Shown: piece after piece, positions 12,901 to 18,900 of the stretch
Layout of the letters: each line of letters begins with the position of its first letter
Numbering within the stretch: position 1 is the first letter of the stretch
DNA from: Bdellovibrionales bacterium
GTDB lineage: Bacteria > Bdellovibrionota > Bdellovibrionia > Bdellovibrionales > UBA840
Length of the DNA stretch: 32,807 nucleotides
Assembly (NCBI GenBank): GCA_037969075.1
Contig: JBBKWS010000042.1
Span: 1-32,807, forward strand
Direction: 5' to 3'
Made by a program: the position numbers

Positions 12901-15900
12901 GCTATAACAACTAATGCCTGAGCCCATGCAGGAAAGGATGGCACATCAAATGTATTTCTCTTACCCCAACGAGCAGGAATATAATGTCTGGCTCTTAAGC
13001 CCAGAGCTAAATTTTGCATACCTTGTGCACTAGCGGCAGCGGCTGACAATAATACAGCTATCCCTATAAGGGTACCTGTATAGGATAACCACGCGGGCAA
13101 AAGAACATCCATAGTTTGTGTAAAGACCGATTTCGTAATATCTGCTGGATTAGACATTTTTAAAATAGCTGGACCAACAATCAGCATAGTAATCACAGTA
13201 GTACCCATAACAATTAGTAAACTGCCATAAGCCTTACGGCTACGTTGTGCCGCGTTTCCTTCATAAGATGCCACAAGATTTGCAAAGATCTCAATCCCCG
13301 TCATCAAAGCAAGAATTCTGGCAAACCCACCCAAGGTAAAATGTAAATGCTCAGAATCAAATGCTGCCATATTAAAATCAGGAAAGTGAAGTCCCTCTTG
13401 CCATATAACTGAGCCAACCATTACCCATAAAAAAAGTAGTATTAATGCAGTTGCTGGGCCAAAAAATTTAGCTGAAATTTTTGGCCCTCGATTTACAGCC
13501 ATAGCGATAAATATGGTAAACCCAACTGCAATTAAACTTCTAGTACTTAGTCCAAACAGCGTTGTATTTAGCATTGGAAGACGATCCACTAAAAAAGTAA
13601 CAAGAGCTGCAATACTAACTAAAAATGTTAACGTATACTCAATAACAGTAATGGCCGCATTTACCTTTACAGCCCAGCCGCCAAACTCCTCTTCACTAAG
13701 CCCACTACCACCACTACCATCCGTGATCCATTTCATTACGTAGCGATACATGGCAGCGACAGTAACCACTGTGAAAACAGCTAGCCAGATAGACACGCCA
13801 AATGTAACCTGGGCAACTCCTGCCCCTACAATTAGTGTTAAAAAAGGACCAAATACATATAGTGGGGAAGTGGCTGGATCACCACCACCTGCAAGCGCAC
13901 CTTGTAATGAGTTTTTTAGTTTATATGATATTGATGCACCCACTATGACTCCTCGTGAAATTGCTTACTTATTTTGTGTGAAACTGCCACTCTTAATGTG
14001 CAAATCTCTCTGTGGAAATGGAATTTCGACTTTTTCTTCTCTAAAAAGACGGTCTATCTCAAAACGAATATCACTACTAATTTTTTCAATACTCCAAATA
14101 TTAGCGCACCAAAACCTTAAATCAAAATTAAGAGACGAGTCCCCAAAATCCTCAAAGATAGCTTCAGGTGCAGGCTCTGTCATAACCTCTTCTTGGCTTA
14201 ACGCTGCTTTGGCCAACAAATCCCTGACCTTATTAACATCCGAACCGTAAGCTACACCTACGTGGATATGCTGTCTTATCCTTTGTCCCGAAAAACTATC
14301 GCTAACTACTTCTTCAGATATTAACTTTGAATTTGGAATGATGATGGTCACCTCATCACGTGTTTGTATGATCGATGATCTAACGCGTATATCAATAACT
14401 CGCCCGGTGGATGATCCAACTTTAATGATGTCACCTACTTTTACTGGTCTCTCGATAAGGATGATAATGCCAGAAATAAAGTTCTGTGCAATATTTTGCA
14501 AACCAAAACCAATCCCCACCATTAAAACTGCACCAACTGCAGCAAGGGAGTTAATCGAAATGCCCAAATTATCTAGAGCAAACAAAATTCCTATAGCGAT
14601 AATTAAATAACGTGAAAATTTCTCGATCGAGTCTCGAACACCCGAGTCAACACCACGAGCACCCAGCGCCTTGTTAATTGCCTTACCTAAATACTTAGCA
14701 AGATAAATCGTTAAGACAATAACAAGCATGGACATAAAAATACTTGTAACGGAAATCTTCGAACCATTTAGCTGCAACAAAGGTTCGCGTAAAAGGTTCC
14801 AAACTTCTTTTAATTGTTCAGTAATTGTTTTGAATTGATCATTCATTTACATAACCTCATTTGACGCAGTTGAGTTATTAACTTGAACTGTAGGTTCAAA
14901 AAATGTAGGACGAGTAATTTTATATTGTTTTAAAGCCTCATTTCCGCGAAGCAGAATATCTGTTTGCAAGGCTTTTTCAAATCTGACGTCCATGACATAG
15001 CACTTTACTTTTATTTGCATCGCGGGACGATTGGCAAAATTTAACTCGGTGAGTACAATTGCAACTGGTTTCTTTAAAAAGGCAAATCGGCTCGTAACAG
15101 CAGTTTCGTAGAGTAATTTTTCAGCTTTTGTAATATCAGAATCTAACGACACATGAAAATCAATTTCAATCATCATATCTAAGGCACCAAAGTTTCCTGA
15201 TGATACATATTCAGTGATAAATTTACTATTAGGAATAGTCACTATAGAGTCATCCAAAGTTACTAACTGAACGGCTCTAAGGCCGATAGCTCTAATCTCG
15301 CCATACGTACCCTGAAAAGCAATTCTATCCCCTACTTGAAACGGTCTATCAAATAACAAAATAACTCCAGCAACAACCGAAGCCACCAAATCCTTTAGCG
15401 ATAAACCCAATGCAACGGCTAATGTACCACTTACTGCTAATATAAGAGCCTTGGGAGGGTTAACAATGCCATAAAAAATATATCCCCCGCCCAAGATATA
15501 AATTGCAAAAGATATCGTGGTTATGATCTGTGCGATCAACAACCGACGAGAAGGAATCCGTCTGTTTAGCGCATTACCTATGGAAGATACAAACTTAACA
15601 GCCATACCTAGGCAAACTATACCAAAAATCAGCAGAGCTATCTTTGTAAAGCTAAGTACATCCAATATTCCAGCGGCATTGCTTAAGTCATTTTCATTCA
15701 TATAAAAAATTCTTTCCTATTAAGAAATAGTCTATTACGTATTGAGCTCGTGAGGATATACGAACCCTGTCATTCTCATCTAGCCATACTAAGTTTTTAT
15801 CTTGCGCTTCTTTTAAACACTTTCTTATGGTTGTATCCCCTACATTCGTTATCTGTTTTAATTCTTGCTGTGTTAAGCTGTCGTGCCTTGCAATGGCAGA

Positions 15901-18900
15901 AAGTAAAAACAGGGCATCATCACTCATCGAAGCCACTAAGCTAGATCCTATAAATAATGGAACACCAACATGAACCTGCCCATCTGCAGGTGAAGATATT
16001 GCAGAAATCCAATACATTAAAGCTGACCTTGGGTTACCTCTGGACTGTCCCCAAAGTAGTCTAAAAAACTGCCCTTCCGCCTGCTGACCAAAACTGTCAC
16101 CCGCACCATAAGCTTTTATAGAGTCATCAAAAGTACGGCTAAATTTTGTTTGTTGGTGTCTTGCCAAAATCATTTTTTGAATTTCAAAATCTTTCCATTG
16201 TGCTAAGTACATCACTTTTCCATAAAAATGCTCAGCTCCCAAAACTCCTTTTAGATAAGCCCATGAGCGCGAATTGACGCTAAGACACCAATATACATTG
16301 GCTGTTTTTAGAGTAATTACTTCTAAAAATAATTTATACGCCTCAAATCCGCCAATCATGCCTAAGAATAGATTTTGTATATCATCGACAAAAAACACTA
16401 CTGGCTTACCTAAATTACGATCAAACTGTTTAAACTCATCTATTGACGAAATCTTTTCTTCTAGAAGTTCTGACAACCAAGCAAAAAGGGCGTCTGCTGT
16501 AACTACCTTTGATGGTACTCTTTTACTTTTTGTAACACAGTCTTTAGAAACACTAACGCTGATGTGATCAAGAGCTGTTGTTTTGCCCATTCCTCGGTTA
16601 CCTACGATAATCAAAAGATCATCAGTAGATTTTTTATTAACCCAATCAGAGATCGCGTTTATCGCTCGCTCTTCTGTCGAGTTATCTCGGTGAATGTATA
16701 TATCTTTATTGGCAGACAAGTAATAATCAAATGAAGACAAATAATCTTGTGGAGGCGGGCCATAGGTAATCGATTCTTTTTCTGCGCGCTCTAAGCGCTT
16801 CCTTAATACTTCTGATAATAGCCTTTTTACTAAATCAATTCTTACTAAATGAGAAGAGATAAATTTCAATACATCCGAGCTAACCGTGAGCAAAAATAAA
16901 ATTGGCAGTATGAAATTGCTGATCTTTGATTTAAATGCTGGCTGCAACCTATTCCATAAATTAGGAAATCGATATGAAAAAGAAGAACTGATTTCATCCT
17001 TCCATTTCGCCGTCTCAATAAATGTAAAAGCAACATTTACCCAAAAAATTAAATTGGAGAACATCTGGTAAGCTAACGCCCTGCGGACCGTGTCTTCCGT
17101 AATATGCAACAAGATAAATTCAATAAATACCAGTCTTGATATTCTAGTTGCTGATTTTTTTATTCTTACTTTCTGCTGCTTTAAAGTATCTACAGAGTCT
17201 GTAGAAAAAGCTACCTCTAGACATATAGTCAGTAGTAACTTCACCGTGCGATAAATATAGTAGACTTGAAAGTAATACAAGAACATCGCTAATTCTTTTA
17301 GATCAGTATCTTGTATTAAAGATCTAGCAAAGCCAATGCTAATAATCATACCTACAGACGGTACAAATGGATTTAATCTAGCGATCCAAACAGCGAATGT
17401 AGTTCTACGCCTATAATCTAGCATTGATTTTGAGATTAAATCTTTTTTTATTTTATCTAATTTATCTGATGTCCAGCGAAGTATCTTTGTTAAGAAAAAT
17501 GGAATCATTATAAGAATGAATAAAATAAATATTTGCCTAACTAAATCGAGCCAACCATCTAGACCTGAAACAAATTTTGATTTAATTTCTATCCACTTAC
17601 TTAATCCGCCTGCCACAAATCGTAGGGGTACTACGCGAATTTCTCTTAATAAAATTCCTACATTCTTCTCATTAAGACCCCGTGGTCGATCACAGTGAAC
17701 CGCATCACACTTACTTAATAATTGAGCTCGTAATGTTCCAGCATCCTGCAAAAGTTTAAAGTTAGTGACCTTCATATCATCTAGCAGTTTAGTTCTAGCT
17801 TCTATCAATGCCATCTTGCGATTTTCGGCTTTTTTATATTTAACCAAATACTCTTCGTAATTATCTTTATATTTCTCTGATTCTATCTCTAAAATTAAAA
17901 CGCTCGGAAGCTCAACATCAGACTGTAATTCAATATCAGAAAACACTTCTAATAAGTAATCTACTGTCTGCTCCCAAATACCACTCACTTCAGAATAATT
18001 ATAACTGATTTTATTGGCCGATAAATTTACATTATTCTCATACACTGCAGATAATTTAGCCCGCAGCAGCTCTAAGCTATCATCCTTATCTTTTAATTTT
18101 TTTATAAAAGCCAAATGCTCTGTTTCTAAATCAATCATGGTTTTATCTACAGCCGATTTCGCTGTTAAAATTGATTCTTCAACACTGTTGTTTAACTCTG
18201 CTGATTGTTTTTCGGCATCTTGTAACCCTGCCTGCGCCTCTTCTAAAGCTTGCTGGCTGTTTGATAATTGATTTTTTAAGCCGTACTTATCATCTATCTT
18301 ATTTCTTGTTGTTTGATAGTTTGATATAAGATTGTCTCTTTTATCATTTTCTATTTTTAAAAAATCAACCTTCTTAAGGTTAATATTAGCTTGCATGGAT
18401 TTTACTGATTCAATTACGGCAATCACTTCTTTATCATTACAGTTGTCGTAACTTTTAAATTCAGCACTTAGCTCTTCTGCATCAGCAAAAATTCTAAGAC
18501 TAAGTTCTTTAATACGTTTTTTGATTTCATCAGGCTTAGACAGATCAACCTGAAACAAAACTTGCGTTGGTACACGGTAATCACTTCCCTTGCCCATTAG
18601 GGTATCAAGACTTAGCCCCATCTTCTCAAGCGTGCCTTTTCTCTCAGTTAGCTCACTTAATGCATTCTCACAAACAATAGCTTCAATGACCTTGGTTTTT
18701 TTATCTGCCGCGAGGCAAGTAAGCGAGAAATTGCTAACAGCAAAGAAGGTGATAAGTATATACAGATGTTTCATCGTAAAAGAATAGCACAGTAGACCAT
18801 TCATTCAATCTATGACGTATTGCCAATAGCCATAACGCATATCAGCGCAAGCCACCAAACTTAATGTTAAAAAATCTCTATCCATATCATCTCAATGATT

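Follow-up and report, generated by a model that had tools for sequence, protein, structure and literature searches.

A membrane-spanning AAA+/winged-helix protein of Bdellovibrionales is encoded in an overlapping pair with an MscS-like channel gene

The window examined in this study, a 32,807-nucleotide stretch of a Bdellovibrionales genome, contains a gene (g00512) for a large protein that combines membrane segments with an ATPase of initiator-like fold, and the locus raises the question of whether this protein acts on DNA or on a channel encoded beside it. A first-pass annotation had described g00512 as a one-protein pathway from the envelope to DNA and had taken its MscS-family neighbors as incidental. 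The open reading frame was confirmed on the minus strand (Table 1) and is conserved; in the public annotation the gene begins at M11, which gives 1026 amino acids. Two MscS-family genes do adjoin g00512, but one of them, mscsA, proved to be a conserved overlapping partner. MscS-family channels, the tension-gated safety valves of textbooks, are thought to act alone or via fused domains, and our literature search found no description of such a membrane AAA+ partner of MscS-type channels. The explanation that we prefer, with a probability of roughly 0.55, is that g00512 is a large ATP-switch accessory subunit of a dedicated two-protein MscS-type channel system.

Table 1. Coordinates in the window of g00512, its predicted domains and the neighboring genes.
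Feature	Position	Strand	Size or residues	Remark
g00512, membrane AAA+/winged-helix protein	15694..18804	minus	1036 aa	open for 1036 codons
Predicted N-terminal hydrophobic export signal	18703..18804	minus	residues 1-34	hydrophobic segment 13-34
Predicted exported, all-helical outer domain	17569..18702	minus	residues 35-412	model helices 37-412
Membrane block	16765..17568	minus	residues 413-680	six hydrophobic helices and a basic linker helix
AAA+ core	16195..16764	minus	residues 681-870	Walker A, Walker B, sensor 1
Lid domain	15955..16194	minus	residues 871-950	carries the nearly invariant FFRLLWGQSRGNPRSA block
Winged helix and conserved C-terminal tail	15697..15954	minus	residues 951-1036	tail GKNFLYE
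mscsA, dedicated MscS-like partner	14847..15701	minus	284 aa	Pfam MS_channel_2nd, 2.1e-19
mscsB, second MscS-family gene	13965..14846	minus	293 aa	most like the MscK C-terminal core
APC-superfamily permease with two C-terminal Usp domains	11694..13943	minus	749 aa	21 nt downstream, same strand

The partner gene and its linkage to g00512

The product of mscsA is an MscS-family protein with a pore helix, a beta domain and a cytoplasmic alpha/beta domain. It scored 69.8 bits against MS_channel_2nd (cut-off 20.2), and its profile aligned over the full length with the solved MscS structures 3udc and 3t9n (E 2.5e-19; residues 8-269 against 14-272 of 3udc). The mscsA ATG overlaps the g00512 stop by 8 nt, and this arrangement is general: an MscS-like gene lies directly downstream of g00512 relatives in 53 of 55 loci, with the other two ending at a contig end. 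These loci comprise 43 from genome contigs (41 linked, two at a contig end) and 12 further loci, short variants included, all of which are linked. The two genes overlapped at all 52 junctions examined, by 8 nt in 48 and by 11-17 nt in four. Within the phylum, the g00512-type ATPase was found in 51 of 301 genomes and the partner subfamily (matches of at least 284 bits, the next best MscS match reaching 143 bits) in exactly the same 51, at abutting coordinates. The ATPase gene and this distinct MscS-like gene thus form an obligate overlapping pair and are therefore probably translationally coupled. The partner is the more conserved of the two, with a mean column identity of 58% compared to 42% for the ATPase, and is 46-58% identical between phyla.

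Architecture of g00512 and comparison with known systems

Hydrophobic segments and structural models support the domain order proposed earlier, and 81 relatives of the full-length type were found at E<=1e-35. The three hydrophobic segments already reported were placed at 13-34, 412-446 and 627-651, and three additional helices lie near 470-498, 505-539 and 552-601. In the orthologues the N-terminus is a typical signal-peptide-like segment followed by acidic sequence, and residues 1-34 are probably a cleavable signal peptide. The AF2 model of the following outer domain (~380 aa) consists of long antiparallel helices, for which a fold search returned generic helical-bundle matches only (9fed_A, Z 13.6; spectrin repeats, Z 11.8). 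Four of its cysteines (C45, C122, C366 and C371) are nearly invariant. The domain is the least conserved part of the protein (0.40) and is variable across the family. It is shortened or missing in variants, some of which keep both the ATPase and the channel gene; judging from these orthologues, the protein can do without its outer domain. The stretch from the last membrane helix to the C-terminal tail, with the AAA+ core, lid and winged helix, is constant across the family. The membrane block, modeled separately (residues 375-700; pLDDT 84.9, pTM 0.71), matched no recognized fold (best VIA Z 8.4; no Foldseek match at E<=1e-3). An AF2 model of the whole protein from 47 sequences scored lower than the earlier one from 44 (pLDDT 83.2 and pTM 0.48, compared to 85.3 and 0.62).

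A similar overall layout is seen in the E. coli proteins MscK and MscM, large MscS paralogues with a signal peptide, a periplasmic helical domain and extra membrane helices. Taken together, g00512 and mscsA would supply the same parts (an exported helical domain, extra helices, the three-helix MscS core and a cytoplasmic cage), but divided between two genes and extended by an AAA+/winged-helix module. For residues 36-690, MscS_TM and MscS_porin occur in the nearest Atlas clusters, a lead with a score of only 0.77; these residues gave no match in Pfam or NCBIfam. Likewise, g00512 has no NCBIfam MscK match, aligns to E. coli MscK with an hhalign probability of 0.5%, and did not find MscK among the matches of its membrane block in fold searches. 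In bCNG channels, which are MscS-family proteins with a fused cyclic-nucleotide-binding domain, an MscS core is also coupled on the cytoplasmic side to a ligand-binding regulatory module; unlike in bCNG, the regulator of mscsA would be a second membrane protein that carries an AAA+ ATPase.

The cytoplasmic module contains a Walker A motif (GNRGMGKT, 735-742) and a Walker B motif (VFFVDD, 803-808). In the 47-row alignment G735, G738, G740 and D807 are invariant, while K741, previously listed as invariant as well, and D808 are conserved in 90% of rows or more. Strand 837-844 of the model ends in N844, which we take to be the sensor-1 polar residue. The lid motif GNPR (923-926) is nearly invariant, and because helix 925-935 of the model begins within it, so that its Arg opens a helix of the lid as in AAA+ sensor 2, we take it to be sensor-2-like, in keeping also with AAA+ family motifs. 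No arginine finger was identified, since no Arg between the sensor-1 strand and strand 5 reaches 90% conservation in this sequence alignment (residues 845-866; the consensus has an Arg, R846, immediately after sensor 1), which makes ring-type ATP hydrolysis doubtful. Two helices (770-781 and 788-797) between strands 757-762 and 802-807 of the model are compatible, by overall layout only, with the helical insertion that initiators have between strands 2 and 3.

Foldseek against the PDB again placed Orc1/Cdc6 proteins first (E ~1e-8), led by Drosophila Cdc6 (7jgr_G, 3.2e-8), A. pernix ORC2 (1w5t, 4.7e-8) and P. aerophilum Cdc6 (1fnn, 6.3e-8) and followed by RuvB and plant NLRs. The initiators share the AAA+ core, lid and winged-helix arrangement (7jgr_G, Z 16.2, rmsd 3.2 over 243 aligned residues; 1w5s, 2qby and 1fnn, Z 14.7-14.9), along with the Walker, sensor-1 and sensor-2-like motifs. 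However, the likeness is not exclusive: RuvB, TnsC, BrxC, archaeal ATPases and STAND proteins lie within 1-3 Z. Unlike Orc1/Cdc6, g00512 is membrane-embedded, carries a putatively exported domain, is always paired with an MscS-like gene, and has neither an identified arginine finger nor a link to origins. Sequence comparison gave no Cdc6/ORC family at E<=1 in Pfam, none in NCBIfam and no Orc/Cdc6 protein in a profile search of PDB sequences, where matches were at the P-loop level only; Orc1/Cdc6 membership by sequence was rejected.

No NCBIfam family was found for g00512, and the sub-threshold Pfam matches seen before were recovered: nSTAND3 (5.6e-5), AAA_22 (5.1e-4), AAA_16, Bac_DnaA (708-812) and MarR_2 (965-1006; 1.9e-3). 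The module shares the NTPase, helical domain and winged helix of STAND NTPases (nSTAND3, NACHT, NB-ARC, MalT), with Z scores of 13.0 for MalT and 12.9 for ZAR1. Assignment to this class was nevertheless rejected: all Pfam matches are below threshold (nSTAND3, 23.3 bits against a cut-off of 27.2), the sensor-2-like GNPR is present, and with the winged helix at its end the protein has no C-terminal repeat sensor, the module reaching the last residue in 150 of the 150 best relatives. The size of the family, given earlier as 2152 relatives at E<=1e-3 and 306 at 1e-30, was borne out by the C-terminal 356 aa as the only query (2198 and 268 cluster representatives). In P0083 a Na+/H+-exchanger domain is joined to a relative of the module; this fusion, like the C-terminal position of the module, speaks for the channel reading.

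These folds are an argument for a membrane-tethered, initiator-type ATPase that relays an envelope signal to DNA, with the winged helix binding a chromosomal site and altering transcription or replication. The Orc1/Cdc6 matches (Z 16.2 to 14.7) stand about 1-2 Z above other AAA+ proteins, and the winged helix is MarR-like over 954-1032 (6pco, Z 11.9; 3oop, Z 11.7) with conserved basic residues (K998, R1013 and R1015) that could bind DNA. Against such a relay, no Orc/Cdc6 or DnaA family reached threshold, the presumed sensor domain is missing from some orthologues, coupling to the MscS-like gene is obligate, and the variable flanks of the pair contain no conserved target operon except the channel gene itself. 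The one-protein pathway of the first-pass annotation is not supported, on these grounds and on the predicted position of the winged helix and tail on the channel (see below), and we consider a signaling role on DNA improbable.

Predicted complex and control of the channel

When modeled together, g00512 and mscsA gave ipSAE values of 0.68, 0.66 and 0.64 (best control 0.00), above a threshold that 116 of 157 solved complexes passed, as did 2 of 215 mismatched pairs, although this is a 1:1 model of a would-be heptameric channel, built on alignments made for this study, so that the calibration is only rough. The runs share at least 95% of contacts, with a partner pLDDT of 78. The cytoplasmic module of g00512 is predicted to dock on the channel subunit at its cytoplasmic alpha/beta domain, with contacts from the loop that follows Walker B (815-820), the helix next to sensor 1 on its C-terminal side (849-856), the winged helix (966-970 and 985-987) and the tail (1031-1036); the membrane block lies outside the interface. 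Conserved positions are modestly enriched among the contacts (8 of 23 compared to 78 of 324 in the ATPase; 9 of 19 compared to 20 of 82 in the C-terminal domain of the partner), and the tail may owe part of its conservation to the partner's start codon, which overlaps the end of the ATPase gene. Within the winged helix, neither the recognition helix nor the wing contributes a confidently placed contact, a point in favor of the DNA relay.

A direct contact, together with strict pairing and gene overlap, would also suit an assembly or quality-control factor that inserts, oligomerizes or remodels the MscS-like heptamer and does not regulate its gating. ExeA/GspA plays such a part in secretin assembly, and AAA_22-type similarity is present in 47 of 47 family members. 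Yet the predicted contact is with a folded cytoplasmic domain, the overlap suggests stoichiometric production that would be superfluous for an assembly factor, and to our knowledge ordinary MscS proteins work without one. We regard this role as a poor prospect.

For the preferred accessory subunit, the retention of Walker A and B, sensor 1 and the sensor-2-like GNPR suggests that the ATPase would bind, and probably hydrolyze, ATP as an Orc1/Cdc6-like switch and would not act on DNA. The nucleotide state of the ATPase would set how the channel gates or inactivates, perhaps in combination with strain that the membrane block and outer domain detect, and solute release and turgor would thereby be tied to the energy or envelope state of the cell. 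A more detailed picture is offered only tentatively: seven copies might encircle the cytoplasmic cage of the heptameric channel as a collar, with ATP binding or hydrolysis opening, closing or locking it, so that solute release would be under the control of energy state or an envelope signal and not of membrane tension alone; the free winged-helix face might also tether DNA or another polyanion. If g00512 is a partner that serves this channel and its AAA+ nucleotide switch is intact, some MscS-family channels would be under nucleotide or envelope control, and a large unnamed protein family would be explained. The module is widespread (~2200 cluster representatives) and strictly linked to its own channel, and the pair is a directly testable two-gene system with clear-cut mutants, open to the established assays of osmotic shock and patch clamp.

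Distribution and flanking genes

The pair is found across Bdellovibrionota and in scattered Proteobacteria. The patchy spread noted earlier was seen again: beyond the 51 of 301 genomes in the phylum, a g00512-type gene is present in 10 of the 64 other genomes of the same order and in 1 of 201 genomes of the order of one proteobacterial carrier. This pattern would also fit an accessory or mobile trait, which counts against the channel reading, and it is one reason to consider a defense or conflict system, in which the AAA+/STAND-like module would respond to an invader (nucleic acid via the winged helix, or protein) by opening the MscS-like pore, collapsing the membrane potential as in abortive infection. 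The family's weak similarities to nSTAND3, NACHT and PtuA and its fold matches to BrxC (Z 14.1), Avs and NLR proteins agree with such a system, as do one subclade with an HTH_17 gene overlapping the ATPase start and recombinase or transposase fragments nearby (L012, L015, L016 and L018) and a ParE gene upstream in L040. However, PADLOC again gave only PtuA (3.6e-4, no matched stretch) for the ATPase or its partner, and its matches at E<=1e-8 in 7 of 136 flanking ORFs were HTH, methyltransferase and Hsp70-like domains rather than defense systems. The identity of the partner between phyla is unusually high for a defense effector, and each of the 51 carriers in the phylum has a single matching locus, the sole genome with two matches having one gene split by an in-frame TGA. 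Additionally, the flanks vary and contain mostly housekeeping and ion-transport genes, with no defense-island pattern. A defense role is therefore unlikely, if worth keeping in mind.

The ion-transport genes that often flank the pair, another point for the channel reading, include APC permeases with Usp domains, NhaA, a Na/Ca exchanger, TrkH, CitMHS with TrkA_C, Amt, a second MscS and EF-hand proteins. In the window, mscsB (positions 833-1092 of NCBIfam MscK, E 1.6e-64) falls outside the conserved pair: of 43 loci, only 3 (L001, L002 and L043) have a homologue immediately after the pair, and in L031 one lies ~0.5 kb further on. The APC permease recurs in the nearest relatives, with homologues after the pair in L002, L008, L009 and L043 and the start of a permease in L025.

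Linkage of the ATPase gene to an MscS-like gene

The stop codon of g00512, the gene for the membrane AAA+/winged-helix protein under study (the ATPase), overlaps the ATG of the adjacent MscS-like gene by 8 nt (TATATGAATGA), and the family profile of this partner aligns over its full length with the solved MscS 3udc (E 2.5e-19). Scanning one genome per species yielded 43 loci carrying g00512 relatives, distributed among Bdellovibrionota, Gallionella, Thiobacillus, Sideroxydans, Methylophilaceae, Chromatiaceae, other Gammaproteobacteria and a Deferrimicrobiaceae MAG. A partner orthologue lies directly downstream in 41 of these (phmmer E 1e-51 to 1e-144), with the remaining two stopping at a contig edge, and the partner gene was also found in all 12 additional loci chosen from genomes with shorter ATPase variants. 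The junction is equally constant: counted from the partner ATG, the two genes overlap by exactly 8 nt in 48 of 52 cases examined and by 11-17 nt in the other four. Within an even sample of the phylum, 51 of 301 genomes contain the ATPase, and the partner subfamily occurs in exactly the same 51, where its genes abut the ATPase gene and score 284-480 bits; the best of the remaining MscS matches in any of the 301 reaches 143 bits. The ATPase and its partner are an obligate gene pair. Mean column identity is 58% for the partner versus 42% for the ATPase.

In one genome of the sample (G167:C7:89519-92085), an in-frame TGA breaks the match to the ATPase gene into two pieces, possibly reflecting a pseudogene or a sequencing error; the adjoining channel gene is intact. 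The genome from which the window derives has four MscS-family genes, none of them a full-length MscK. The second such gene in the window, mscsB, falls outside the pairing rule, with a homologue directly after the pair in only three of the 43 loci; in a fourth locus one lies approximately 0.5 kb beyond the pair.

Coordinates of the genes, protein regions and predicted contacts (residue numbers for protein features; L numbers denote related loci in other genomes)
Feature	Position	Strand	Description	Basis
g00512	15694-18804	minus	single open frame, 1036 codons	
Partner gene	14847-15701	minus	284 aa, MscS family	Pfam MS_channel_2nd match
mscsB	13965-14846	minus	resembles MscK core	NCBIfam
APC-superfamily permease	11694-13943	minus	749 aa, two C-terminal Usp domains; 21 nt after mscsB	
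g00512 N-terminal part	37-412; 415-677		N-terminal hydrophobic helix, then long helices (37-412) and helix block (415-677)	AF2
g00512 Rossmann-type core	730-735, 757-762, 802-807, 837-844, 863-866		strands	AF2
g00512 after core	954-1030		helical lid, then winged helix (954-1030)	AF2
Interface, ATPase side	815-820; 849-856; 966-970, 985-987; 1031-1036		loop after Walker B; helix after sensor 1; winged helix; tail	complex model
Interface, channel side	174-175, 196-213, 237-238, 248-256		C-terminal alpha/beta domain	complex model
HTH_17 genes	L012:9633-9893, L015:9666-9911, L016:4308-4553, L018:7952-8215			

The cytoplasmic module and its predicted contact with the channel

The figures reported for g00512 in the first-pass annotation held up on re-running: all Pfam matches are sub-threshold (nSTAND3 at 5.6e-5, AAA_22, AAA_16, MarR_2 and Bac_DnaA), and PADLOC returns only PtuA (3.6e-4). 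In the present Foldseek search of the PDB, Cdc6/ORC proteins head the matches (7jgr_G 3.2e-8, 1w5t 4.7e-8, 1fnn 6.3e-8), with RuvB, plant NLRs and SSO1545, an archaeal ATPase, next. An NCBIfam search gave no family for the protein, which in the public gene call starts at M11 and has 1026 aa. With the C-terminal 356 aa as the query, 2198 cluster representatives were recovered at E<=1e-3, of which 268 reach E<=1e-30, and the end of the module coincides with the last residue of the protein in 150 of 150 relatives among the matches listed. In P0083, a distant relative of 1369 aa, a Na+/H+-exchanger domain stands in front of the module.

The AF2 model (47 homologues; pLDDT 83.2, pTM 0.48) was also searched independently of Foldseek, with a concordant result: 7jgr_G at Z 16.2 (rmsd 3.2, 243 aligned), then 1w5s, 2qby and 1fnn at Z 14.7-14.9, PABY2304 at 14.4, NSF-D2 at 14.3, BrxC at 14.1, TnsC at 13.9, MalT at 13.0 and ZAR1 at 12.9. 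The winged helix on its own matches MarR-type domains (Z 11.9). These searches indicate that the module has a general AAA+ core, lid and winged-helix shape, for which Orc1/Cdc6 is the best match by approximately 1-2 Z units. When the family profile was compared with all PDB sequences, only P-loop-level matches and MarR-like and coiled-coil fragments were obtained, with no sequence link to Orc1/Cdc6. Walker A (GNRGMGKT), Walker B (VFFVDD) and N844, which closes strand 4, are intact. In the alignment and the AF2 model, a nearly invariant GQSRGNPRSA block places its GNPR at the opening of a lid helix, which we take to be the place of sensor 2 in RuvB/Cdc6-type AAA+ proteins; a search for an arginine finger in g00512 identified none.

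Complex prediction with residues 400-1036 of g00512 and the partner, using a separate alignment for each, gave ipSAE values of 0.68, 0.66 and 0.64; of three controls, the best scored 0.00. Among 157 solved complexes 116 attain the ipSAE mark, against 2 among 215 mismatched pairs, a calibration that is only rough here because our own alignments were used. At least 95% of contacts agree between runs, and the partner has a pLDDT of 78. The prediction supports binding between the two proteins, with the predicted physical contact on the cytoplasmic side. Conserved positions are moderately enriched at the predicted interface, both in the ATPase (8 of 23 versus 78 of 324) and in the C-terminal domain of the channel (9 of 19 versus 20 of 82), although the final two tail codons of g00512 overlap the partner start and may owe part of their conservation to this.

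The best-supported reading, with a probability of roughly 0.55, is that the pair makes up a channel system of two proteins: g00512 would be an accessory subunit that acts as a nucleotide switch and binds the cytoplasmic cage of the MscS-type channel dedicated to it. The ATP state of g00512, or envelope strain, would then control channel gating. The first-pass annotation had proposed a path from the envelope to DNA through an ORC/Cdc6-type ATPase; the fold matches and the winged helix, whose recognition helix and wing are absent from the confident channel contacts and so leave room for DNA binding, speak for this proposal, which we nevertheless consider improbable. A role for g00512 as an assembly factor, in favour of which the predicted contact with the partner also counts, seems to us about equally improbable. 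A full-text search of papers available without subscription turned up no account of an AAA+, STAND or Cdc6-like partner for an MscS channel.

Membrane and exported regions

Orthologues begin with signal-peptide-like segments and four cysteines are nearly invariant, both of which support export of the N-terminal domain. An exported N-domain combined with a cytoplasmic ATPase requires an odd number of spans, so the six hydrophobic helices conserved in the family have the wrong parity; the weakest and most acidic of them, 552-574, is probably the candidate non-spanning element. Modelled separately, residues 375-700 gave a confident structure (pLDDT 84.9, pTM 0.71), for which Foldseek found no matches at E<=1e-3 and a VIA-wide fold search gave a best Z of 8.4 (TMEM87A), within the noise for unrelated helical models.

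The outer domain is shortened in orthologues of 753-916 aa, while a 642-aa orthologue begins directly at the membrane block and four of 621-630 aa have an unrelated N-terminus of four to five helices, aligning only from about residue 511-628 onward. The 621-642-aa orthologues, which lack the exported domain, are at L045-L049 (G273, G058, G194, G243 and G095). All of these shortened variants keep the channel gene, with the overlap in L045-L049. This pattern of variation points to a constant unit of membrane anchor, AAA+ core, lid, winged helix and tail, accompanied by an MscS-like protein of its own. The long outer domain, previously proposed as a sensor, is therefore optional.

The possibility that residues 1-680 are a split-off N-terminus of MscK was also considered and rejected, as sequence and fold searches gave no support. 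Pfam and NCBIfam returned nothing for the N-terminal half, the NCBIfam MscK model did not match g00512, and hhalign against E. coli MscK gave a probability of 0.5%. The Atlas feature search alone leans towards MscS_TM/MscS_porin clusters, at a score (0.77) often reached by shuffled proteins. The MscK/MscM-type domain MscS_TM (PF12794) was found in none of 121 phylum genomes and none of three proteobacterial or other carriers. The likeness between MscK and the g00512 pair is an analogy of architecture only.

Genomic surroundings and spread

Flanking ORFs, sampled as the two nearest called ORFs per side at 42 loci (136 ORFs), vary between loci. Ion-handling genes recur among them, including APC permeases with Usp, NhaA, Na/Ca exchangers, TrkH, CitMHS with TrkA_C, Amt, EF-hand proteins and a second MscS. 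Homologues of the APC permease follow the pair in L002, L008, L009 and L043, and L025 contains a permease start; in close relatives the permease may extend the operon. Between 10800 and 20000, promoter-like sites were fewer than in shuffles, and the promoter/terminator scan gave no informative site.

That the pair is a conflict system whose effector is the channel seems unlikely; PADLOC on the pair and the 136 flanking ORFs shows no defence systems, and the seven ORFs that match at E<=1e-8 all do so through generic domains. The patchy spread noted earlier holds in the larger sample, with the 51 carriers including 32 of 67 genomes in one family. Of 201 genomes in the order to which a Gallionella carrier belongs, one is positive, namely the centre genome itself.

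In one subclade, an HTH_17 (excisionase/MerR-like) gene of 81-87 aa overlaps the ATPase start, with recombinase or ISL3/transposase fragments close by; it may be a third component or mobile-element context. ParE lies upstream of one locus, and in five (L007, L009, L017, L021 and L023) the ORF immediately after the channel gene encodes an outer-membrane protein of the Phenol_MetA_deg family. Elsewhere in the window are a deoxyhypusine-synthase-like gene (29120-30085, minus), a 659-aa ORF without a Pfam family (30769-32748, minus) and a lone 98-aa Hpt-domain gene (22425-22721, plus).
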